DNA of 64,000 nucleotides from Escherichia phage PECP20. The notes below the pieces were generated by a model that worked only from the letters and a program-made list of their open reading frames with translations, was not told where the DNA came from and ran no database searches. The stretch lies in sequence record OQ873415.1; one strand, given 5' to 3'. Positions 191-62,576 of the stretch are shown in pieces. Numbering within the stretch: the first letter of the stretch is position 1; the number at the start of each line of letters is the position of its first letter. The position numbers were made by a program, and so were the translations under genes.

Positions 191-715
191 TCATTTTAGC
201 AAAATAAAATCAACTTGTTCTGCCAATGAACGTCTAAACATTAATTGACAACTTCCGAGGATGAAATCAGGTGCTTCATAGACCGCGATGTAGTATCCTT
301 TAGCTTTCAAGAGTTCAACATCCACCTGGTCATCAAACCATGCATAAACCGCGTCAACGCTTTCAAATCCAAAATAGAACCCTTGAGCCCAATCTTCACT
401 CAATTCAAATGTGTACTCAATTCTATGGTATCTTAAGATATTTTGTTCAAGAAGTTTGTCTTCATTTACTGTAGGACGATTAGGGACATTATAGTTGTCG
501 CCGTGATGGTAGAAGTTACCTGAGATTATTCCATGTTTATCAAGGAACTCCCATGTTTCTTCAGAGTTGTCAGTGCCAGACCAACCGTAAGGTGAGCGTG
601 GTTCTTTATTCCAAGAGGTTTCCCAAATTCTGACGGCTTTACCGTCTTCGATAGCAATTCCTGGTAATGATTCACGTTGAGTACAAAAACTACGTTCTAC
701 GCGGTAAACTAACAT
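191..715 (-). CDS. hypothetical protein (174 aa)
   Basis: Long minus-strand ORF in gene-dense early region; no recognisable motif. Confidence 0.6.
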   Translation of the reverse strand: MLVYRVERSFCTQRESLPGIAIEDGKAVRIWETSWNKEPRSPYGWSGTDNSEETWEFLDKHGIISGNFYHHGDNYNVPNRPTVNEDKLLEQNILRYHRIEYTFELSEDWAQGFYFGFESVDAVYAWFDDQVDVELLKAKGYYIAVYEAPDFILGSCQLMFRRSLAEQVDFILLK

Positions 716-774
716 ATTATTCTCCTCTGGTTAATATGGTTATAATATCAAAACCAGAGGAGAAGTAAACAACT

Positions 775-1194
775 TTATGCGAAAGCAGCTGGGCTATATT
801 TTTTAATTTGGAATTCAGGAACTACCATGAACTGTCCAGCGAAAACGATGTTATAAAGCTTAACACCATCTTCTACCCAACGGTCGCTAATAAAACCAGC
901 AATTTGCTTAGTTTTCCATGGCGTTCCATCAGTTGCCGCAGCAATAGTGAATTCATGGTCTTTTTCAACAGAAACTGATCTGCATAGTCCCCATTTGAAC
1001 GCTTTTTCTTCCGGTTCAATGAATTGGCCTGAGACATAGCCAATGTTACCATCGGCGTCACGAACTTTAACTTCATTACGTCCAAAAACCGGATCGCTCA
1101 CAGAAAGAACTTCAACCAACTTCCCGGCAACTTTAGAGCGAGAAGCAACAGATACATATACGTAATCACCTGTAGAGAGATTTACAATATTCAT
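775..1194 (-). CDS. hypothetical protein, tandem paralog family member (139 aa)
   Basis: Shares C-terminal W-[VI]-EDG-x-x-L-[YL]-N-[IV]-V block with the two ORFs upstream; dexA.1/dexA.2 position. Confidence 0.65.
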   Translation of the reverse strand: MNIVNLSTGDYVYVSVASRSKVAGKLVEVLSVSDPVFGRNEVKVRDADGNIGYVSGQFIEPEEKAFKWGLCRSVSVEKDHEFTIAAATDGTPWKTKQIAGFISDRWVEDGVKLYNIVFAGQFMVVPEFQIKKYSPAAFA

Positions 1195-1203
1195 AATAAT
1201 TCC

Positions 1204-1689
1204 TTAAGCTTTACGAGGAGACACATAGCGAGTGATTTCAGATTCTTTAACAACTCGGAAGTCACCTAAGAATACGATATTGTATAACTTTTCACCATCT
1301 TCTACCCATTGGTCACTAATGAAGCCACACATAGTATCAGTTTTGCTTGGATAACCGTATTCATCGATGAAGTCAAATTCTTTATCAGTCTGGAATTCAA
1401 CACCTTTACACAAGGCCCATTTGAACTGTGCATTAGGCTCTGTGGATTCAACTTTTTCTCTTGAAGCAAAAGCACCACTCACAGGAGTTTCCAAGAACTT
1501 TGCACGAACATAAGCAAATTGGGTTTCCATTGACCCAAGACTAGGAATAATACGAACTTTTACCTCAGAATCTTCATCTTTAACACCTTCTTTAAGTTGA
1601 ATACTTACAACTTCGACCAATTTTCCTGCTGCTTTAGAACGAGATTTGTTAGATACGCGAACGATTTCACCAATAATACCAAGATTCAT
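1204..1689 (-). CDS. hypothetical protein, tandem paralog family member (161 aa)
   Basis: Same conserved C-terminal block (ISDQWVEDGEKLYNIVFLGDF). Confidence 0.65.
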   Translation of the reverse strand: MNLGIIGEIVRVSNKSRSKAAGKLVEVVSIQLKEGVKDEDSEVKVRIIPSLGSMETQFAYVRAKFLETPVSGAFASREKVESTEPNAQFKWALCKGVEFQTDKEFDFIDEYGYPSKTDTMCGFISDQWVEDGEKLYNIVFLGDFRVVKESEITRYVSPRKA

Positions 1690-1718
1690 AATTTTCTCTC
1701 TTTGTTTAAGTTGAATTC

Positions 1719-1748
1719 ATTATACTCCATCCGTCCTTGGATGTACAA
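1719..1748 (-). promoter_or_regulatory. early-type promoter (minus strand GTACAA-N-TATAAT) upstream of 1204..1689
   Basis: Plus-strand cattatactccatccgtccttggatgtacaa; same cassette as at 2277, 43855, 44875. Confidence 0.4.
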
Positions 1749-1750
1749 CA

Positions 1751-2245
1751 TTAATTAAGGATATTAACCACAGCACTACGTGGAACTACACTAAAATCAC
1801 CTGCATGAACAACGTTCAGAAGTTCAACACCGTCTTCAATCCACTGATCAGTCACCCATCCATTTACTGGACCAGCGAATGGGCGTCGAATTGAAACATA
1901 TTTACACAACAAATCGGTAGGCTCAATAGGCTTAATCAGAGTACCGTACATACAAGCGATATCCATATCAATACAGATATCTTTAACGGGTTCTACTTCT
2001 TCAATCAACAGTTCAAAGTCGGTGCTTGGAAGGGCGGTGGTAGAAATTGTACCATATGAATTTTTAATTTCTAAGAATAACCAAGGGCCTTCAACTTGTT
2101 TGATGAAGTTAACAATAGTGAAACTATTACCTTGAGTGGCACCTAAAATTTCGCAAAACTTTTCATAAGCTCGCACTGAAGCACTGTACCAGTTGATTTG
2201 TTTTTCGTCTTTCAGGATATAAGTAGCCGTAGTATTGATATTCAT
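1751..2245 (-). CDS. hypothetical protein, tandem paralog family member (164 aa)
   Basis: C-terminal VTDQWIEDGVELLNVVHAGDF matches paralog block. Confidence 0.65.
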   Translation of the reverse strand: MNINTTATYILKDEKQINWYSASVRAYEKFCEILGATQGNSFTIVNFIKQVEGPWLFLEIKNSYGTISTTALPSTDFELLIEEVEPVKDICIDMDIACMYGTLIKPIEPTDLLCKYVSIRRPFAGPVNGWVTDQWIEDGVELLNVVHAGDFSVVPRSAVVNILN

Positions 2246-2276: not shown

Positions 2277-2306
2277 ATTATACTCCAACCATCCTTGGTT
2301 GTAAAC
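2277..2306 (-). promoter_or_regulatory. T4-type early promoter (GTTTAC-N18-TATAAT on minus strand)
   Basis: Plus-strand attatactccaaccatccttggttgtaaac between dexA stop and next gene start. Confidence 0.45.
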
Positions 2307-2311
2307 TGATT

Positions 2312-2989
2312 TTATCGCTGTTTTACACTTAACGGGTCAGGATTCTCAGGGACATCTTCAAGGCCAAGCGCATAACGCTGAGCATATTTTAACATCAAAA
2401 TATCTTTAGCACAATCATGAACACTATCATGGGCAACGAATCCTTTTAGCGTACCCATTGGTAACGGACACATACTTAATCCTCGCGTCAACGAGTAAGC
2501 TTCGATTGCCGTACGAATATCGCGTTGAGCCCAGAATTTAACCGGTTCTAATTTATCAGTATCAATATCTGGTTCAAGAACACCTTCATCACGATAGAGG
2601 TCACGAATCAAATCGACCAAGATTGGGAAGTCAAAACTCATACCACGGCACCACATTTGTGATTTCCATTGGTCAACTTTATTAGCTCGACAATAATCTA
2701 AAAAGATTTTAATGCCATCAAGCGTAGTGACATCGTCTTCAGATGGGGCCAAGTTTTTACGTGCTTCAGCCGATTGTTCTTTCCACCATTTCATGGTGGA
2801 TTTAGCGAAAACTCGCTTCCCTTTTTGAGAAGCTAAATTAAATTTAATTCGCTTACCTCGTTGAACAAGTTCTTCGAATGATTCAACAACTTCAGGGTCT
2901 GAATTATATGCAATAACCGCAAGGTCAATAACAGCCGCTTTTGATGTATTGCCGAATGTTTCAAAGTCTATAATAACATCAGTGCTCAT
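2312..2989 (-). CDS. dexA: exonuclease A (DnaQ-like DEDD 3'-5' exonuclease)
   Basis: 225 aa; N-terminal IIDFETFG exo I motif; immediately downstream of dda as in T4. Confidence 0.8.
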   Translation of the reverse strand: MSTDVIIDFETFGNTSKAAVIDLAVIAYNSDPEVVESFEELVQRGKRIKFNLASQKGKRVFAKSTMKWWKEQSAEARKNLAPSEDDVTTLDGIKIFLDYCRANKVDQWKSQMWCRGMSFDFPILVDLIRDLYRDEGVLEPDIDTDKLEPVKFWAQRDIRTAIEAYSLTRGLSMCPLPMGTLKGFVAHDSVHDCAKDILMLKYAQRYALGLEDVPENPDPLSVKQR

Positions 2990-2998
2990 AATTTTCTC

Positions 2999-4312
2999 TC
3001 AAATAAAATGGACGTCAAAACGACCACGAGTTGTGCCGACATACAATAGCTGTTTAGCTAATTCTGAATCGGCATAATGGATACACGGTGTATAAACAAA
3101 GGCCGTGTCAACAGACATACCCTGAGCCTTATGGAAGGTTGATACAGGTAGCGCCTTCACCTTAGTGAACATGCGTTTAGCATCCCAGAATTTACTCCAT
3201 GGAGCTTTACCACCTTTATTCCAGAATTTGTATGTTTCTGCGGTCTTAGCCAAAAACAAATTGAATTTATAAAGCTCTTCTTCGGAAGAAATAACCTTTA
3301 TATCCTCGCGGACGTATTCTTCATCATCCCCATATGTTTCTACTGTAAGATTCCAGTATCGTATCATATATTCGCCTGAAACACCACGTGCTTTAACGAA
3401 TGTAGACGTTTCTACAGCATCTCGAATACGAACGAATTGCCCGTTATTGAAAAGCATTTCGGTCATATTTTTGCCATCTAGCTTATACGTCTTGGTAAAC
3501 GGCTCTTGTAGAACAATGACTTCGTCTTTAATAAATGGCTTTTCTGTTTCAAGAAGTTTTCGGCGAATAATTGAATTTAACTTGTCCACCGACTTATTTG
3601 TGAATGCCATCATTCGATTTTCGAAAAGGTCTTCAGGAGTTTTAACGACATTAAAATAGTTCATCATATACGATTTAAGGTCTGTATATCCATGAACACC
3701 GTGCCCATCAACTACTTTATCATAAATCCATTTGCCATTACGAATATCAGTCGCAACATCAATAATTGGTGCATTGCTACGTTTAACTTCTGTAAGGTTG
3801 CATTGCACGAAGTCTTTGTGAGTGAAGAAAGGACTTAGATACGCAGTGGATTCGCCTGGGTCTACCGGACGAATCTGGCATCGGTCACCAATTCCAATTA
3901 CTGTGCACCATTTAGGGATACTAGCTAACATTATTTTAAACAGAGAACGGTCACACATTGATGCTTCATCAAATAACAGTACACGACACAAGGCTAAGTC
4001 GGGAACCTTTTTCTGTTCAAATAATACGTTTTCTTCGTATGTAGTTGGGTTGATTTTAAGAATGCTATGAATAGTCGATGCTTCTTGACCCGCAAGTTTG
4101 CTTAGAACCTTTTTAGCAGCATGTGTAGGGGCTGCTAAAATAATACCTGATTCTCCGGCAGAAATAAGGGCTTCAACGATGAATCTAGTAAGGGTTGTTT
4201 TACCTGTACCAGCAGGCCCGTTAATAGTTACGTGATGTTTCTTTTCTTTAATAGCTTTCATAACAACGTTGAAGGCGTTTTTCTGGCCTTCGGTCAAATC
4301 ATCAAATGTCAT
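2999..4312 (-). CDS. dda: Dda DNA helicase (SF1B)
   Basis: 437 aa; near-colinear with T4 Dda as recalled (MTFDDLTEGQKNAFN..., Walker A GPAGTGKTT). Confidence 0.95.
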   Translation of the reverse strand: MTFDDLTEGQKNAFNVVMKAIKEKKHHVTINGPAGTGKTTLTRFIVEALISAGESGIILAAPTHAAKKVLSKLAGQEASTIHSILKINPTTYEENVLFEQKKVPDLALCRVLLFDEASMCDRSLFKIMLASIPKWCTVIGIGDRCQIRPVDPGESTAYLSPFFTHKDFVQCNLTEVKRSNAPIIDVATDIRNGKWIYDKVVDGHGVHGYTDLKSYMMNYFNVVKTPEDLFENRMMAFTNKSVDKLNSIIRRKLLETEKPFIKDEVIVLQEPFTKTYKLDGKNMTEMLFNNGQFVRIRDAVETSTFVKARGVSGEYMIRYWNLTVETYGDDEEYVREDIKVISSEEELYKFNLFLAKTAETYKFWNKGGKAPWSKFWDAKRMFTKVKALPVSTFHKAQGMSVDTAFVYTPCIHYADSELAKQLLYVGTTRGRFDVHFI

Positions 4313-4620
4313 CGTAAAGTCCCTGCAATTGGAATACTAACAATACGGCCAGTATCTAGAATTCGTTGATACAATCTTTGCGTCTCCGCATCTAGTTTAA
4401 TGTGTTTCATTTCAAGCTTATTAAACCAGAACTTACGCGGAGTTTCGACCATTCTTAGAACTCCCATTTTTAAATCTGTTTTATACTGTGTTTTCAAAGT
4501 ATCGAAAACTTTATCTGCAATATCCTTTCTAAAAAATACTGCAGGACGATGTTCATCAAGTGGAACTGGGACAGTAAATCCTTCCATATCTCGATAAACT
4601 ATTGCATATACATAAACCAT
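4309..4620 (-). CDS. hypothetical protein (dda.1 position, 103 aa)
   Basis: ORF overlapping dda start by 4 nt. Confidence 0.6.
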   Translation of the reverse strand: MVYVYAIVYRDMEGFTVPVPLDEHRPAVFFRKDIADKVFDTLKTQYKTDLKMGVLRMVETPRKFWFNKLEMKHIKLDAETQRLYQRILDTGRIVSIPIAGTLR

Positions 4621-7175: not shown

Positions 7176-7632
7176 CTAAATAAAAACTAGCAGGTTCAGA
7201 GAATGTTTCTAGTGCTACACCTTTTGTCTTAAAAAATTTCCAAATAGCTCGTTGCAAATGGATTAAATCTGCTAATGATGTAATAAAGTATTTTTTGGCA
7301 AAATACGTATGGTCTCGCTTTTCAAACAGGTCTAAACGCTTTTCAGGATTCACATAAACAGCATTTTCTGTAGATTCATAACCTAAGTCCTTTATGCCTT
7401 CTTCAAGACTAAACGGAGAATTTTTAGAATGAGTAATAGCTCCAACTCGCTCTACACGAATTTTGTAACCTTTAGGAATCTGCAATTTGCAGAATTCTTC
7501 TACGATATATTGCGGATTATTTAGACTTTTGTTAATGAGAATAGCTATTTCTAGTGGAGTCTTATCTTCTACTGGTATATGTTTAAATGACTTGGCTTCA
7601 AGCAAATACATTTTAAATAACATAGCATCCAT
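7168..7632 (-). CDS. hypothetical protein (154 aa)
   Basis: ORF in mrh region by synteny. Confidence 0.6.
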   Translation of the reverse strand: MDAMLFKMYLLEAKSFKHIPVEDKTPLEIAILINKSLNNPQYIVEEFCKLQIPKGYKIRVERVGAITHSKNSPFSLEEGIKDLGYESTENAVYVNPEKRLDLFEKRDHTYFAKKYFITSLADLIHLQRAIWKFFKTKGVALETFSEPASFYLGE

Positions 7633-13350: not shown

Positions 13351-13643
13351 TCAGCATGATAAACTGTAGCACCTTTAGTATCATTCATTTGAACTACATC
13401 TACCGGAGAAATTACTCGATAGAGACGTGGTTCACCTCCATAAGAGCGTGCTGCTCGTCCTGCGTAAATCTTTGCTAAACCGATATCTTCAGTAAAGAAT
13501 ACACGATTCAAGTTTTTCTTACGTCCGGTTTCAGACAGAACTCCTGTTTCTTCAGGAGGACAAAGCATGTTTTCGATTTTAGCTGAACTACTTGAACCGT
13601 GATAAAAAATCTTAAATTCTGCTTTACAATCGATGGTTTTCAT
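13326..13643 (-). CDS. hypothetical protein with HGS motif (105 aa)
   Basis: ORF preceded by promoter cassette; FYHGSSSS motif. Confidence 0.55.
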   Translation of the reverse strand: MKTIDCKAEFKIFYHGSSSSAKIENMLCPPEETGVLSETGRKKNLNRVFFTEDIGLAKIYAGRAARSYGGEPRLYRVISPVDVVQMNDTKGATVYHAEWAFCEEI

Positions 13644-13669
13644 TTTGTTCTCCAGTAGTTGATAGGTCT

Positions 13670-13698
13670 ATAATAACACAACTACTGGAGAAGTAAAC
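13670..13698 (-). promoter_or_regulatory. T4-type early promoter (GTTTAC-N17-TATTAT)
   Basis: Plus-strand ataata (13670-13675) and gtaaac (13693-13698); spacer carries 5' arm of an SD-sequestering inverted repeat. Confidence 0.45.
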
Positions 13699-42876: not shown

Positions 42877-43826
42877 TATAACACCTCAATGGCATTTCGT
42901 AAACCGTCCGCTTTCGCATTCAGAGTTTTTAACGATTTAGTCTGTTCTTTAATCTGGGCTTCGACTTCTTTCAGACGAGATTTGAGATATTCACGTTCTT
43001 CGCTCAAGTTGTCAACTTTTTCTACTTTAGGTTCTTTAATAGTCTTAAGTTTATACTCGTTAGGGTTCTTCAGCTTAATTCGGGTGCGAGAACTGTATAA
43101 CATTGAACCGTTATCTTCGGATTCGTCGAACGTTTCAACAACATCCATAGTCTCTAACAATGTAATAAGTTTATAAGACAATGAACGAACGGTTTTATTA
43201 TGCTTATTAATTTCTTCAGCTTTCATGGTACCGAGATTACGTGAGTAGTAATAAGGAACCTGGATATCAATTGATAATGATGCGTTACCATTACCGGTCG
43301 GTTTGAATACTGCAGTAACCCAATCTTTAACATGAACTTTATTTGTACGACAATCACCGCCCGTGAATAATTTACGAGAATGTTTAAAAAGCATATTCAC
43401 TTGGTTATTGAATTCACAAGCAAATTTATCAGCGAATTTAGTTTCAGGAATGGTAGATAACCAATCAGCCAAATGAGTCTTTTTAACATCATTAACAATA
43501 GTGAATTCAACCAAATCAGTTTTAGATGTCACAGATTTAATAAAGCTCGGTTTCATAAAGTTTTTAATGTTATCGCGAGCTACAGTAGAAGATAATAAAC
43601 GAGAACGTTTGAACCATTGAAGCAGTGTCCCTAATGAATGAGAATACGCATTCTGAGTATCTTTACAGATATGATTTTCTTGACCTGTGTATGTACCAAA
43701 ATCGCGAAGAATACCACTTACTACATCTCGGTGTGGAACATCAAATCCTAGTGCACCAACAGCGCGCTGGGCACGAACGTTAGCGATAAGACCGGCAAAG
43801 TATTCAATGTAATGTGAACGTGTCAT
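42876..43826 (-). CDS. hypothetical protein with C-terminal coiled coil (316 aa)
   Basis: ORF with own promoter cassette; C-terminal heptad-like region. Confidence 0.7.
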   Translation of the reverse strand: MTRSHYIEYFAGLIANVRAQRAVGALGFDVPHRDVVSGILRDFGTYTGQENHICKDTQNAYSHSLGTLLQWFKRSRLLSSTVARDNIKNFMKPSFIKSVTSKTDLVEFTIVNDVKKTHLADWLSTIPETKFADKFACEFNNQVNMLFKHSRKLFTGGDCRTNKVHVKDWVTAVFKPTGNGNASLSIDIQVPYYYSRNLGTMKAEEINKHNKTVRSLSYKLITLLETMDVVETFDESEDNGSMLYSSRTRIKLKNPNEYKLKTIKEPKVEKVDNLSEEREYLKSRLKEVEAQIKEQTKSLKTLNAKADGLRNAIEVL

Positions 43827-43854
43827 AATATTTTCCTCTCGTTAAGATAGATTT

Positions 43855-43884
43855 ATTATACTCCAACCATCCTTGGTTGTAAAC
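43855..43884 (-). promoter_or_regulatory. T4-type early promoter (GTTTAC-N18-TATAAT)
   Basis: Plus-strand attatactccaaccatccttggttgtaaac, identical to the cassette at 2277..2306. Confidence 0.45.
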
Positions 43885-43888
43885 CGTT

Positions 43889-44848
43889 TTATGATTTTAA
43901 TGCATTCATTGCATTAAAAAGTTTAGAGTACTGCAACTGGAGATTCGTTACAACACTTTGAGCATCACGAAGCTTAGCTTGTGCTTTGTCAAGTTCAACG
44001 GACAGTTGGTCTGCAGTAGCCTTGATTTGGTTGTAATGATAATCTTCGGCCGGAAGAAGGTCATTAGAAACATTTAGTTTTACTGCCGACAGTTTGCACA
44101 CATTTGGCAAACCTTTAAACATACCGGGTTGTGTCGGAGAATATGCGCTTAGAACCTCTGCATTACCGACTGGTGTTGCTGTGATATTGCCTTCGAACGT
44201 TGCATTTTCCTTTTTAAGATTTTGATAGTATTCAGAGTCTTTGTGCCACCATGGCGCAGGAACCTTTTTACCAATAGATACACGAGCCTGGATAGCGATA
44301 TGGCCCTTATTCTTGATAGGGTCGATAATATTAAGCTCACGAGAATAAATTGCTTTAATCTGGTGGATATTATCACCTAAAACTTCTAACGCTTGGTGGA
44401 ATACACGAGCAACGTTATCGTTCTTAGGTTTATACGTGAGAGTGAACTCGTTCTCGCTGATAACCATGATTTCCAACTTATCGTAAGTATATTTCAAATG
44501 TTTCATGTTAATTGCTTGAGGACGAATACGAGAAGCAATGGCCATCAGATTGTTAAGGTTATTCCGGAACTGCTTAGCGAAATATTGTCCTTCACCGCCA
44601 ATACAAAAATTACGAAGTTTCTGTTTGGCTAATAAACGGCTGAACTCACCATTTTTAATGAACTCTTTAACGGGCGTGTTAGTAACACATTCAAATTGAG
44701 TAAACATACGAGAAGTAATCCCATAATACGAACAGACTTCCTCAATCTCTTCAGGAGTTTTTACAGGCATACGGATAGGATTAGGTCCTGGAGTATATGC
44801 GTTCGAGGTAAATTCTTTGATAAGTTCTCTACGTGTAATAAAAGCCAT
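43889..44848 (-). CDS. hypothetical protein with C-terminal coiled coil (319 aa)
   Basis: ORF with own promoter cassette. Confidence 0.7.
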   Translation of the reverse strand: MAFITRRELIKEFTSNAYTPGPNPIRMPVKTPEEIEEVCSYYGITSRMFTQFECVTNTPVKEFIKNGEFSRLLAKQKLRNFCIGGEGQYFAKQFRNNLNNLMAIASRIRPQAINMKHLKYTYDKLEIMVISENEFTLTYKPKNDNVARVFHQALEVLGDNIHQIKAIYSRELNIIDPIKNKGHIAIQARVSIGKKVPAPWWHKDSEYYQNLKKENATFEGNITATPVGNAEVLSAYSPTQPGMFKGLPNVCKLSAVKLNVSNDLLPAEDYHYNQIKATADQLSVELDKAQAKLRDAQSVVTNLQLQYSKLFNAMNALKS

Positions 44849-44874
44849 TTTATATTCCTCATGTTGAAAAATTT

Positions 44875-44904
44875 ATTATACTCCAACCATCCTTGGTTGT
44901 ACAT
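44875..44904 (-). promoter_or_regulatory. early-type promoter (GTACAA variant of the same cassette)
   Basis: Plus-strand attatactccaaccatccttggttgtacat. Confidence 0.4.
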
Positions 44905-45899
44905 CATTCCTTAAGAAGTTTTACTACTTGAATAAGATTAGCTCGTTCTGTTTTATTTTTACCATTTAAGCCTGCTAATCGTGAGATTTCATCGTCAGTC
45001 TGTTGAATAGTTACATTAAGTTCGTTAATCAAAGCTTCAAAGTATTTGATTTGCTCAGCATGTTTTGATTCAAATTTCTGAACCGGAATAACGTCTTGGT
45101 TCAGTTCATCAATAAGGTCTTTAAGAGCATCTTCTTGGTTGATATCGTATTCAACTTCTTTTATTTCTTCAACGAACTCGTTTTTATATCTAACATCTTT
45201 TAGTCCTGGTGCCGGTCCTGAAATCTCTTCTTTAAGAGTACAAACATACCCAATACGGTATTGGATACCGTCTCGCTTGATATCAACTTCGTCGATAAAT
45301 CCGCAATGTTTAAGACCAGAGCCGATTAGGTCAAAATATCCTTGACGTCGTCCTTCAAACGTTACACGAACTACTAAGACAGTTTTGCCAGCGACCTTTT
45401 GAAGCTCACATTTATAAAAGTTCGTTGAACCTGAATAACGTGGATGAGTTTTAAAGTTCATCTGACGATCTAGGCCCATTTGTAAACGTGCTGTTACGGC
45501 CATAAAACGTGTTTGGTTCTCGTTAAGATGAGCAACAATCCATTTCAAAGGCATTTTACCCTGTTCACGACCGAACAAATCAGTACATCCTAGATTACGC
45601 AGGATGTTGTTAGAGTTAATCATCGACAGAACGTTAAGTTTATTCAGCGCGCTGAAGATTCCATCAGCCATTGATTTTCCATAACCTTTACACGCTTTAA
45701 TAAGTGCTCGCGGCAGATTAGTATAGATTTCAGACGGCATATGAAAATCAAATTTACTAGTCAGTAATTGATGAACTTGGATAGCAATTTGCTCGTAATT
45801 AAGTGCTCTGCGATCATTATGGTCTTTAAACCACACTTTAATCTGTGAAGCACATAAACCGTTAATTTCATGTTTTACCGCATCAGATGTAATGCTCAT
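44904..45899 (-). CDS. hypothetical protein with C-terminal coiled coil (331 aa)
   Basis: ORF. Confidence 0.7.
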   Translation of the reverse strand: MSITSDAVKHEINGLCASQIKVWFKDHNDRRALNYEQIAIQVHQLLTSKFDFHMPSEIYTNLPRALIKACKGYGKSMADGIFSALNKLNVLSMINSNNILRNLGCTDLFGREQGKMPLKWIVAHLNENQTRFMAVTARLQMGLDRQMNFKTHPRYSGSTNFYKCELQKVAGKTVLVVRVTFEGRRQGYFDLIGSGLKHCGFIDEVDIKRDGIQYRIGYVCTLKEEISGPAPGLKDVRYKNEFVEEIKEVEYDINQEDALKDLIDELNQDVIPVQKFESKHAEQIKYFEALINELNVTIQQTDDEISRLAGLNGKNKTERANLIQVVKLLKE

Positions 45900-54755: not shown

Positions 54756-54766
54756 TTTGATTTCTC

Positions 54767-54812
54767 CTCTAGTTGACAGGTCTATAGTAACACAACTAGA
54801 GGAGAAGTAAAC
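54767..54812 (-). promoter_or_regulatory. regB upstream region: early-type promoter plus SD-sequestering inverted repeat
   Basis: GTTTAC-N17-TACTAT; arms CCUCUAGUUG / CAACUAGAGG pair the GAGG of the SD; 5' arm lies in the promoter spacer. Confidence 0.45.
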
Positions 54813-55111
54813 TACTCTTTGAAAGGAATTAACTTTTTAACTGCTTTAGATACTTCGTCACGAACCTGATGGAAGTTCTTGAGCTGTTCAAGGCGTTGTT
54901 CGTAATACGCAATCTCATCTTCTTCAAGACAATCGTCAGCGTCTTCTTTCAGATATGCCTTGTACTCATTAAAGAGGGCCCATAGGCGGTTCTCAAAGTC
55001 ATCAAGGCTTTGAATTTTCTTGTGCTTCGGAACAAGGCCAAAAGGATTGCTTTCAGTTATGCGTCTAGATGCTTCATAATGAGTTCCAAAGCCTGATAGG
55101 ATTTGAGCCAT
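54812..55111 (-). CDS. hypothetical protein (99 aa)
   Basis: ORF. Confidence 0.55.
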
Positions 55112-60446: not shown

Positions 60447-60752
60447 TTATTTTCCTCGACATTCTTTAATGAAATTTTCTAGATTGGTAGATTCAATAGC
60501 TTTTTTACGAGCTTCTGCGTGTTCTTCTTCAGACAATTTACATTTATAATTGACCCAGACGTTATGGTCGAAACTAGTCGTGGCATATAATAACAATGCT
60601 CCAACGAATAGCAAAAACGGCGATAAGAATACAAAACCAGGAACACCATCCATACTGTAAGCCTTTTGTAATACTGCAACAGAAAGAGCTGCGTAAAAAA
60701 GTGATACAAATATTGTTAAAAGACCAATTCGGTTGGTTTCGCCTAATTTCAT
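60447..60752 (-). CDS. membrane protein with C-terminal ENFIKECR motif (101 aa)
   Basis: Two TM helices; C-terminus LENFIKECRGK. Confidence 0.6.
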   Translation of the reverse strand: MKLGETNRIGLLTIFVSLFYAALSVAVLQKAYSMDGVPGFVFLSPFLLFVGALLLYATTSFDHNVWVNYKCKLSEEEHAEARKKAIESTNLENFIKECRGK

Positions 60753-60810
60753 AATATTCTCCTCATGTTTTAATAGGACTACTATAACATAGTCCTATCA
60801 GTTTGTACAC

Positions 60811-61029
60811 TTATTTTGACATTTCTTCGATGTCACGACGATACCCATCACGAACTTCACGAAGAGCTTCAAGGCCACACATAGGCTCGATACCAGTAAT
60901 GTGAACTTGATTAATCTGATACTCTACATCTTCTAACTGAGCGAAAACATAACGACGTTCTGCTGCACAACCAGGTTTAGCTTTACCGAAACGTTTATTC
61001 AAAGTAGTCATTTTTATATCTCCATTCAC
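60811..61029 (-). CDS. hypothetical protein (72 aa)
   Basis: ORF. Confidence 0.5.
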   Translation of the reverse strand: MNGDIKMTTLNKRFGKAKPGCAAERRYVFAQLEDVEYQINQVHITGIEPMCGLEALREVRDGYRRDIEEMSK

Positions 61030-61091
61030 TCATTTGTTTTGATAGGTCTATAGTATCAACAACTACAGACCTTGTAAACTGTTTTGTGAAA

Positions 61092-62076: not shown

Positions 62077-62328
62077 TTAAATTTCACGACATGCGATATT
62101 ATATTCATCCCAGAGGTCATCATGTGAAGCCTCTACCAATGGAACGATTGTACCGTTTATGTCTTCATTATAAGGGCAAATTGTACAGTGCGCATCTTCG
62201 AATCGGATGCCTTTGTGTTCAGATTTTTTATAACGCATATCGAATATCTTTGCAAACTTTTCACGAGTAATGGTTTTACCAACCACTTTGGTTCCGATAC
62301 TTTCGTAATAAATCATTGTGGACTCCAT
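62077..62328 (-). CDS. Cys/His-containing small protein (83 aa)
   Basis: ORF preceded by promoter cassette at 62334-62374. Confidence 0.55.
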   Translation of the reverse strand: MESTMIYYESIGTKVVGKTITREKFAKIFDMRYKKSEHKGIRFEDAHCTICPYNEDINGTIVPLVEASHDDLWDEYNIACREI

Positions 62329-62378
62329 TTGTTTTGATAGGACTACTATAACATAGCCCTATCTTGTTGTAAACTGTT

Positions 62379-62576
62379 TTAGCAAGAATAACTAGATGAT
62401 ACCCAGCCTTGAACAGTGATACTATTGTGGGATAATGAGATCGCGTCCTGGAGATTCAGACCTGCGTTATCTTCAATCCATAATGTAACTTCTTCGCGTT
62501 CTTCTGCTGCAATTTGGAACAGGTTTTCCAGAGCAGCTACTGCCGTACGTACAGCACAATCTAATTCACGAGACAT
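62379..62576 (-). CDS. small protein ending W-x-SSS-x-x-C (65 aa)
   Basis: C-terminus GWVSSSYSC; tandem paralog family. Confidence 0.5.
   Translation of the reverse strand: MSRELDCAVRTAVAALENLFQIAAEEREEVTLWIEDNAGLNLQDAISLSHNSITVQGWVSSSYSC

Follow-up and report, generated by a model that had tools for sequence, protein, structure and literature searches.

The window analysed here, a stretch of 64,000 nucleotides of Escherichia phage PECP20 (OQ873415.1), carries three adjacent open reading frames (ORFs) of 139, 161 and 164 aa directly downstream of dexA. All three lie on the minus strand, within the interval 775-2245 given in the initial annotation. Judged by sequence, these genes are members of the known MotB / MotB.1 family of T4-like phages, and we consider the locus to be, with high probability, the early-gene cluster that carries the motB family in a T-even phage of RB69 type (Mosigvirus). 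The genes and their immediate neighbours are as follows.

2312-2989, minus strand: dexA exonuclease, 225 aa, the upstream neighbour that anchors the locus
1751-2245, minus strand: ORF3, 164 aa, intact motB.1 orthologue
1204-1689, minus strand: ORF2, 161 aa, motB orthologue
775-1194, minus strand: ORF1, 139 aa, a second, shorter motB paralogue
191-715, minus strand: motB.2 homologue, 174 aa, the downstream neighbour (phrog_1106; annotated motB.2 in RB69)

The gene order thus runs dexA, motB.1 (ORF3), motB (ORF2), second motB paralogue (ORF1), motB.2 and cef, placing the cluster within the dexA-cef early hyperplastic region of Tevenvirinae, on the same strand as dda/dexA. The same order was found in Escherichia phage CAU_ECP01 (99.8% DNA identity) and Mosigvirus phiC120 (97%), and the RB69 annotation follows it as motB.1 / motB / MotB-like / motB.2. 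The identity of dexA was established from a Pfam Rv2179c-like match, PHROG 255, and annotation in near-identical phages. The motB.2 homologue did not contain the block shared by the other three proteins and falls outside the MotB family.

The paralogy of these genes, their common C-terminal domain and the RB69-type layout of two motB and one motB.1 were already published in 2021. Specifically, MotB and MotB.1 were described as having a common C-terminal domain and different N-terminal domains (PMC7827196, Patterson-West et al. 2021), with two motB and one motB.1 in RB69 (PMC7827196).

A shared C-terminal domain

A regular-expression search of the six-frame translation recovered exactly one copy of the block W-[VI]-EDG-x-x-L-[YL]-N-[IV]-V-x-x-G-[DQ]-F in each ORF, and no fourth copy, the published 29-aa peptide included, was present outside the three ORFs in any frame of the 64-kb window. 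Alignment placed the blocks at the same positions.

1793-1843, minus strand: conserved block WIEDGVELLNVVHAGDF in ORF3
1258-1308, minus strand: conserved block WVEDGEKLYNIVFLGDF in ORF2
829-879, minus strand: conserved block WVEDGVKLYNIVFAGQF in ORF1

The core motif G-[FWY]-[IV]-[ST]-D-[QR]-W-[VI]-E-D-G-x-x-L-x-N-[IV]-V was present in all three proteins. Pairwise alignment showed that the block, as first described, is statistically significant and that the similarity is far beyond chance, with BLASTP E-values of 1e-29 for ORF1/ORF2, 2e-11 for ORF1/ORF3 and 3e-10 for ORF2/ORF3, and each protein exceeded the gathering threshold of Pfam PF17613 'motB' (25 bits, whole-protein score; ORF1, 76.1; ORF2, 180; ORF3, 35.3). 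All three also passed reciprocal profile searches for MotB/MotB.1. The idea that the ORFs are unrelated and share the block through chance or composition is refuted by these scores and by the retention of the block across hundreds of phage genomes, together with its absence elsewhere in the window, and has virtually no probability left.

The shared block was near-invariant (72-86% identity) among proteins with unrelated N-termini, and the C-terminal domain showed the same 72-86% identity in proteins that matched only 35% of ORF3. A profile of this domain, searched against 1.84 billion representative proteins, returned 28 matches and no relatives beyond T-even-type phages. Two profile-search matches, P0180 and P0184, were rejected as spurious, being repetitive Ig-like proteins.

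One tandem duplication and a third, partial paralogue

ORF1 and ORF2 aligned over their full length at 43% identity and had in common the motif VSxxSRSKxAGKLVEV. Both therein contained the KOW-like N-terminal motif V-S-x-x-S-R-S-K-x-A-G-K that marks MotB proper (category 1 of PMC7827196). ORF2 comprises a KOW-like N-terminal domain, a linker and the shared C-terminal domain; ORF1 has the same two domains, although its N-terminal loop and its linker are shorter. Orthologues of ORF1 at 80% identity or more were found in 207 phage records, and the 60-80% identity band was empty.

ORF3 lacked the KOW-like motif, which places it in the MotB.1 group (category 2 of PMC7827196). ORF3 matched phrog_2333 across its full length (aa 1-164, E = 1.2e-82), including the non-KOW N-terminal domain, and aligned with T4/T4T MotB.1 across both domains, whereas its Pfam motB match was confined to aa 84-159. 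Hence, the proposal that the N-terminal halves differ holds for ORF3 against the other two but not for ORF1 against ORF2, which are homologous end to end. Likewise, the proposed triplication was right as to paralogy and wrong as to count: on these alignments, the cluster is one old ORF1/ORF2 tandem duplication plus ORF3, which is paralogous to them only via the C-terminal domain of ~57 aa.

Separately, we observed that the reference motB.1 genes of T4 (NC_000866/AF158101) and RB69 (NC_004928) are split by single-base insertions within the shared block. Two such insertions in RB69 yield a 132-aa and a 29-aa ORF, while T4 reference MotB.1 is cut off inside the conserved block, at 119 aa. All re-sequenced T4 records lack the extra G and carry an annotated MotB.1 of 143 aa, and on these grounds we rejected programmed frameshifting as the source of the T4 truncation. 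Since motB.1 is interrupted within the block in both references, we regard the '29-aa category 3 peptide' and the '13.8-kDa MotB.1' as very likely to stem from errors of annotation or sequence, and heterologous tests of MotB.1 that relied on the reference ORF were probably carried out on a truncated protein.

Promoters and dispersed cassettes

Consensus searches identified three promoter-like sites at the cluster, two of which precede members of the family.

2277-2305, minus strand: early-promoter-like site before ORF3, TTTACA-17-TATAAT, 11/12 matches
1719-1747, minus strand: early-promoter-like site before ORF2, TGTACA-17-TATAAT, one deviation from the PeSL consensus
720-769, minus strand: promoter-like site (TTTACT-16-TATTAT, 769-742) with inverted repeat, between ORF1 and the motB.2 homologue

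The ORF3 site conforms to the T4-type PeSL promoter consensus, TTTACW-N17-TAYWAT (PMC4122927), and the ORF2 cassette is 77% similar to it over 62-64 nt. These calls are consensus matches only, and the total of 12 sites is close to the 9.5 expected from shuffling, although the ORF3 and ORF2 sites score best. Near-copies of the ORF3 cassette were located elsewhere in the window (43823-43892 and 44875-44901), as were near-copies of the 720-769 element (54762-54816 and 13641-13698). The latter element contains a perfect 13-nt inverted repeat (720-732 / 752-764) and forms the downstream boundary of the cluster; beside the ORF2 and ORF3 promoters we found no inverted repeat of at least 8 nt.

No promoter-like site was found upstream of ORF1 in the consensus search. 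Its ATG is located 9 nt past the ORF2 stop, and its Shine-Dalgarno sequence overlaps the ORF2 stop codon. From this arrangement, transcription of ORF1 together with ORF2, and coupling of their translation, are very probable, and the ORF2 promoter-like site probably drives an ORF2-ORF1 bicistron. The initial annotation had assigned each gene its own cassette, which holds for ORF3 and ORF2 but not for ORF1, since the third cassette (769-742) is that of the next gene (191-715). Finally, the phiC120 RefSeq record gives motB a 14-aa N-terminal extension that overlaps the promoter and is most likely a start-codon miscall.

Predicted structures and charge

AlphaFold (AF2) modelling predicted that each of the three proteins consists of two small SH3/KOW/Tudor-like beta-barrels with a disordered linker between them; the models had pLDDT 75-79, their domains being rich in beta-structure and their linkers falling below a pLDDT of 50. 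The ORF3 model (mean pLDDT 78.8) was divided as follows.

aa 1-83: predicted LSm/SH3-like barrel
aa 86-107: predicted disordered linker (pLDDT below 50)
aa 108-164: shared C-terminal domain

Strands in the ORF3 model were at residues 8-11, 42-49, 55-61, 67-73 and 80-83, accompanied by helices. The N-terminal barrel is predicted to be KOW-like in ORF1 and ORF2 and of a different, LSm/SH3-like kind in ORF3, while the C-terminal barrel is larger in ORF1 and ORF2 (~73 aa) than in ORF3 (~57 aa) because its hairpin is longer. The best Foldseek matches were to tandem Tudor and KOW6-KOW7 structures, in a search that did not distinguish which domain was aligned, and those of ORF3 were to SH3-like Tudor/KOW barrels with weak E-values of 1.5e-3 and above. 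The published fold of the C-terminal domain is an OB-fold, as opposed to the SH3-like Tudor/KOW barrels returned by this search. Searches of BFVD returned family members and generic KOW/SH3 barrels and nothing else, and a PDB sequence search with both family profiles gave nothing below E = 0.5.

The three proteins of the window range from acidic to near-neutral (pI: ORF2, 5.2; ORF1, 5.8; ORF3, 4.5, with a net charge of -9), and the shared block itself is acidic. ORF1 and ORF2 carry a net negative charge, in contrast to T4 MotB (pI 9.2, +5.8).

Divergence and recombination

Across the six Mosigvirus genomes compared, ORF1 and ORF2 had pS values of 0.24-0.30 and pN values of 0.06-0.09, compared with a pS of about 0.085 and a pN of 0.005-0.008 for the flanking dexA and motB.2, such that pS in ORF1 and ORF2 was 3-5 times the flank value. 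The divergence of ORF3 resembled that of the flanks. No positive selection was detected among these genomes, pN/pS being 0.08-0.41, and thus below 1, in every gene and domain. The ORF1/ORF2 alleles were visibly mosaic. ORF2 of the window combines a T4-type N-terminal domain with an RB69-type C-terminal domain, and a KOW N-terminal domain is combined with a MotB.1-type C-terminal domain in four further proteins (P0058, P0065, P0088 and P0172). Copy number and N-terminal domain type also differed among phages.

Fast divergence and mosaic alleles at pN/pS below 1 fit recombinational module shuffling under purifying selection and do not demonstrate positive selection. The locus had been suggested to be a case of diversifying duplication; the duplication, the divergence or replacement of N-termini and the greater variability relative to the flanks are borne out, but selection for change is not. 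Duplication with N-terminal divergence or replacement is also the published view of the family (PMC7827196).

Possible functions

The family's only experimental data come from T4 MotB, which binds DNA non-specifically and alters H-NS binding (PMC6070864, PMC7827196). It coats DNA without sequence specificity, alters H-NS placement on the DNA and raises burst size about two-fold (PMC6070864, PMC7827196); it binds DNA tightly, copurifies with H-NS/StpA and is toxic when expressed (PMC6070864). Deletion of motB.1 from T4 had no phenotype in laboratory conditions (PMC12152347). By analogy with T4 MotB, the window proteins may be abundant, non-essential host-takeover factors produced in the first minutes of infection and may bind nucleic acid or nucleoid components. 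ORF3 and ORF2 would be expressed from sigma-70 early-type promoter cassettes, with ORF1 transcribed along with ORF2. However, this transfer of function is uncertain because T4 MotB is basic and the MotB orthologue in the window is acidic, and the non-basic Mosigvirus orthologues call for caution in extending the DNA-coating model.

The acidic to near-neutral proteins and their acidic block suggest, in our own reading of the sequences, that the common C-terminal barrel is more likely a partner-binding or oligomerisation module than a DNA-binding surface; the variable N-terminal barrel, with its basic patches, would then make the nucleic-acid contacts. Across phages, this C-terminal module changes very little, and recombination exchanges N-terminal barrels, linkers and entire alleles. 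A more specific version, which we put forward speculatively and rate as rather unlikely in this exact form, is that the near-invariant acidic barrel acts as an adaptor that docks all members on one partner or on each other, and that interchangeable N-terminal barrels (KOW-like, LSm-like and others), with an optional linear motif of ~15 aa (DMDIACMYGTLIKP), redirect it to different nucleic-acid targets. The common partner could be of host or phage origin, for example a nucleoid-associated protein. If so, the family would amount to a set of combinable tools for taking over nucleoid and RNA, and T-even genera would trade ORF1/ORF2 alleles as part of an arms race against the defence proteins or chromatin of their hosts.

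Two other readings are each improbable. In one, the locus serves anti-defence or host range under diversifying selection, with each paralogue directed against a different immunity or restriction factor and variable N-termini that follow variation among hosts. ORF1 and ORF2 exceed dexA and motB.2 in synonymous divergence by a factor of 3-5 and in non-synonymous divergence by a factor of more than 10, mosaic alleles are exchanged between Mosigvirus and Tequatrovirus (e.g., RB51 and Bas41), copy number and N-terminal type vary, and the early, non-essential genes have dispersed promoter cassettes at their flanks, all of which would suit such a role; moreover, H-NS is a xenogeneic silencer, so the effect of MotB on it is loosely counter-defence (PMC7827196). 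Yet pN/pS stays below 0.45 in every gene and domain, ORF3 evolves at a flank-like pace, and the joint rise of pS and pN suggests that old alleles were imported rather than that the genes adapted rapidly where they stand. PADLOC and NCBIfam searches with the cluster proteins returned no matches, leaving them without similarity to known defence-related families, and a host-dependent phenotype is unreported for the family. The host-range or anti-defence role originally suggested thus finds nothing that connects the genes to either, the T4 MotB data concerning DNA and H-NS.

The other reading, which we likewise doubt, makes ORF3 (MotB.1) an RNA-binding Hfq/LSm-like post-transcriptional factor, its C-terminal domain only tethering it to MotB's complex. 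An LSm-like five-stranded N-terminal domain has been predicted for MotB.1, GoF and Frd.2 (Kim et al. 2025, PMC12152347), and the N-terminal part of our ORF3 model, at pLDDT 79-89, is a beta-sheet accompanied by helices, but the fold matches of ORF3 are generic SH3-like barrels and its strong acidity is unfavourable for RNA binding. Reporter RNA was unaffected by MotB.1, though the protein used was the truncated 119-aa form (PMC12152347).

Comparison with known systems

The cassettes at the cluster resemble the PeSL cassettes of T4-like phages (Arbiol 2010; Comeau 2014) in being dispersed early-promoter copies that flank hyperplastic-region genes and, at one site, in the perfect 13-nt inverted repeat; they differ in that no stem-loop was detected at the ORF2 and ORF3 promoters. 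PeSL elements may have had a role in rearrangements, for example that of motB.2, which sits elsewhere in T4 than in RB69-type phages.

T4 MotB (Pfam PF17613; Patterson-West et al. 2018, 2021) is the positional and sequence counterpart of ORF2, its orthologue (56% full-length identity), and both have the KOW-like N-terminal motif and the C-terminal core. ORF1 is shorter than T4 MotB, keeping both domains but missing some 22 residues in the N-terminal loop and the linker. The T4 motB locus has the same early promoter and dexA ... cef neighbourhood, but a single motB where the window has two in tandem, and its basic product differs from the acidic to near-neutral ORF2 and ORF1. ORF3 shares 46% identity with intact T4-type MotB.1 (143 aa, PHROG 2333), with both domains in common, and has in addition a linker insert of ~20 aa with the motif DMDIACMYGTLIKP; unlike the truncated T4 reference protein, it is intact. 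In RB69 (RB69p010-p013: two motB, motB.1 and the 29-aa peptide), the gene order is that of the window and the proteins are near-identical, although motB.1 is a single intact gene here and split in the RB69 reference, and the N-terminal domain of ORF2 is T4-type, not RB69-type.

The motB-type genes downstream of dexA

Over its first 5 kb the window shared 99.8% identity with Escherichia phage CAU_ECP01 and ~97% with Mosigvirus phages, for example phiC120. The region comprised:

2999-4312, minus strand: dda helicase
2312-2989, minus strand: dexA exonuclease
1751-2245, minus strand: ORF3 (164 aa), motB.1; phrog_2333, E = 1e-82
1204-1689, minus strand: ORF2 (161 aa), motB orthologue, 56% identical to T4 MotB; full-length Pfam match, E = 4e-53
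775-1194, minus strand: ORF1 (139 aa), a second, shorter MotB-like paralogue; phrog_1671, E = 2e-51
191-715, minus strand: motB.2 (174 aa), neighbour of ORF1, without the shared block
after the 174-aa gene, minus strand: cef

The lengths and positions of ORF1-3 were as the initial annotation gave them, and the C-terminal block that it recognized in all three (ORF1, WVEDGVKLYNIVFAGQF; ORF2, WVEDGEKLYNIVFLGDF; ORF3, WIEDGVELLNVVHAGDF) proved real and statistically solid. Pairwise BLASTP returned E = 1e-29 for ORF1 and ORF2 (43% identity across the whole length), 2e-11 for ORF1 and ORF3, and 3e-10 for ORF2 and ORF3, and all three proteins passed the gathering score of Pfam PF17613 ('motB'). Neither a motif scan nor tblastn against the six-frame translation located a fourth copy of the block in the 64 kb. 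The N-terminal halves had been said to differ, which is correct for ORF3 but not for ORF1 versus ORF2, whose N-terminal halves are alike and carry the motif VSxxSRSKxAGKLVEV. Duplication with N-terminal divergence stands as a description of the family.

Promoters and dispersed cassettes

Each gene had also been credited with an independent promoter. This holds, at the level of promoter-like sites, for ORF3 and ORF2; no such site was found ahead of ORF1, and the third cassette is that of the next gene:

2305-2277, minus strand: promoter-like site of T4 early type upstream of ORF3, TTTACA-17-TATAAT
1747-1719, minus strand: promoter-like site of T4 early type upstream of ORF2, TGTACA-17-TATAAT
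769-742: third cassette, belonging to the next gene, with a perfect 13-nt inverted repeat (720-732 / 752-764)

ORF1 starts 9 nt past the ORF2 stop codon, which itself lies inside the ORF1 Shine-Dalgarno sequence. Near-copies of the motB-family/cef intergenic cassettes occurred elsewhere in the window, at 13641-13698, 43823-43892, 44870-44915 and 54762-54816, with further ones at 60747-60817, 61034-61058 and 62323-62391, all with 76-100% identity over 25-74 nt. The cassettes match the PeSL promoter consensus of T4-type phages (PMC4122927), and the dispersed copies are likely to be early promoter elements of PeSL type that mark further hyperplastic regions. In the phiC120 RefSeq (NC_055718, locus 2704-3231) motB is annotated as 175 aa; the coding stretch of its 14 additional N-terminal residues, MEYSEFNLNKEREI, overlaps the -10 region of the promoter, and the annotated start codon is probably a miscall.

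Divergence and mosaic alleles

Divergence by Nei-Gojobori counting, all pairs of six Mosigvirus genomes (five for ORF3)
ORF1: pS 0.237, pN 0.060, pN/pS 0.25
ORF2: pS 0.299, pN 0.094, pN/pS 0.32
ORF2 N-terminal domain: pS 0.414, pN 0.168, pN/pS 0.41
ORF2 C-terminal domain: pS 0.144, pN 0.019, pN/pS 0.13
ORF3: pS 0.121, pN 0.011, pN/pS 0.09
dexA: pS 0.086, pN 0.005, pN/pS 0.06
motB.2: pS 0.084, pN 0.008, pN/pS 0.10

ORF1 and ORF2 were the divergence hot spots. The diversifying selection initially proposed was not demonstrated, given pN/pS of 0.06-0.41 throughout. Because synonymous and non-synonymous divergence were both raised, we read the pattern as the signature of old, divergent alleles being exchanged rather than positively selected in situ. 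This reading has support from three observations. ORF1 contains a two-state patch (DPVFGRNE versus CGLFSPHQ); ORF2 of the window (1204-1689) is an intragenic mosaic when set against T4, RB69 and three further loci (L007-L009), joining a T4-type N-terminal domain near-identical to that of T4 MotB (…SRSKAAGKLVEVVSIQLK.GVKDEDSEVKVRIIP) to an RB69-type C-terminal domain, while the other Mosigvirus genomes carry a different N-terminal motB allele; and an ORF1-type C-terminal domain follows a MotB N-terminal domain in metagenomic proteins, which could be assembly chimeras. Separately, in a 43-aa metagenomic protein (P0183) the MotB.2 N-terminus, MKIYRVESSFSIL.YED, is joined directly to the MotB.1 C-terminal tail, EDGVELLNVVHAGDFSVVPRSAVVAILN, as if a deletion between motB.2 and motB.1 had occurred at a YED/EDG microhomology.

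Predicted structure and function

AlphaFold2 models from family alignments (mean pLDDT 78.8 for ORF3 and 75.0 for ORF2) were beta-rich, with two domains on either side of a linker of pLDDT <50 (residues 86-107 in ORF3 and 71-87 in ORF2). Foldseek searches of the PDB retrieved 53BP1 (tandem Tudor domains) and Spt5 (KOW6-KOW7) with weak E-values (at least 1.5e-3), which agrees with the literature, where KOW and LSm/SH3-like folds are predicted for the N-terminal domains. The matches were not assignable to one domain, so the C-terminal domain, for which the literature proposes an OB-fold, is described here only as a small beta-barrel. The ORF3 linker also holds a motif of ~15 aa, D-[MFT]-D-[IV]-A-[CS]-M-Y-G-T-L-[IV]-K-P (here D-M-D-I-A-C-M-Y-G-T-L-I-K-P, window 1928-1969, aa 93-106), which T4-type MotB.1 lacks. 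Its location varies within the family: in P0037, P0038, P0031, P0058 and P0172 it is found N-terminally or between domains. Domain-insertion events may have left it behind as a remnant, or it may be a linear motif that has been shuffled.

T4 MotB, the sole member with experimental knowledge, is made early and abundantly and is toxic if expressed alone; it alters the footprint of H-NS, relieves repression of part of the H-NS regulon and raises burst size twofold (PMC6070864, PMC7827196). It is basic (pI 9.2, net charge +5.8), whereas the window proteins (778-2245) are not (pI 5.2 for ORF2, 5.8 for ORF1, and 4.5 for ORF3, with a net charge of -9); the isolated MotB.1-type C-terminal domain has a pI of 4.65. 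Non-specific coating of DNA, as by T4 MotB, may not be a general property of the family. Given this contrast, the most likely class of function for ORF1-3 would be that of nucleoid- or nucleic-acid-directed early takeover factors; the C-terminal barrel that they share would more probably serve them all in partner binding or oligomerisation than as the DNA-binding surface. An anti-defence role, as first suggested, was not demonstrated, ORF1-3 having matched no known defence-related family.

Distribution across phages

Using tblastn, ORF1 matched 767 phage records, with a true orthologue (≥80% identity) in 207 and MotB alone (<60% identity) in 560; the 60-80% band was empty. ORF3 matched 739 records, 308 of which covered at least 80% of the query, and in the remainder the alignment was confined to the C-terminal ~35% of ORF3, at 72-86% identity. 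One C-terminal domain stands behind at least four N-terminal arrangements among database homologues, among them a MotB.1-type C-terminal domain preceded by a KOW N-terminal domain, and proteins of 245-252 aa that have two barrels at the N-terminus. When 1.84 billion representative proteins were searched with a profile, only 28 matched; two spurious repetitive proteins aside, all came from this phage group. ORF1 extends beyond Mosigvirus to the Tequatrovirus phages RB51 and Bas41 (FriedrichZschokke), which have RB69-type motB and the ORF1 paralogue, yet T4-type dexA and motB.2. Their motB.2 is placed upstream of motB.1, in the T4 order, unlike that of the window, which is downstream of ORF1. 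Both features point to exchange between genera and to rearrangement inside the region.

motB.1 in the reference genomes and comparison with T4 and RB69

The T4 reference motB.1 (NC_000866.4; 119 aa; UniProt P39415, '13.8 kDa protein') ends in ...GWVTDQWIGRWR and a stop. One extra G (locus 2292-2330, record ~7291-7330; compared with loci L005 and L006, 395-826) shifts the frame within the conserved block, where ...DQWI runs into GRWR and the stop, and the next frame then reads EDGVELLNVVHAGEYSVVPRSAVVAILN and a stop, the rest of the domain. Among the records listed, only AF158101.6 and NC_000866.4 have the extra G; in 13 others (RB55, RB59 and eleven T4/T4T records) this stretch is shorter by one base, and MotB.1 is annotated as 143 aa in T4T and MT984581, the two of these that were opened. 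Kim et al. 2025 (PMC12152347, methods section 4.2) obtained motB.1 constructs by gene synthesis, with T4 coordinates from NC_000866.4 and a product given as 13.8 kDa, and heterologous MotB.1 was without effect on their reporter. The protein assayed was therefore probably the truncated 119-aa form, without half of the conserved C-terminal domain, and the negative result probably concerns that form.

motB.1 is a single intact gene in the window, phiC120 and RB51, in contrast to the RB69 reference (NC_004928, locus 3877-4373), where two single-T insertions, probably due to a mutation in the stock or a sequencing error in the reference, split it into a 132-aa ORF and the 29-aa RB69p012 (the 'category 3' peptide of PMC7827196). 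Gene order is dexA, motB.2, motB.1, motB, cef in T4 and dexA, motB.1, 29-aa ORF, motB, 'MotB-like', motB.2, cef in RB69. Patterson-West et al. 2021 (PMC7827196) had already reported a conserved C-terminal domain common to MotB and MotB.1 with different N-terminal domains, proposed that motB or motB.1 was probably duplicated from the other, sorted the family into categories by distinct N-terminal domains, and listed two motB copies, one motB.1 and the 29-aa peptide in RB69. The finding is therefore a re-discovery: ORF1-3 are an already described gene family in an already described RB69-type arrangement.
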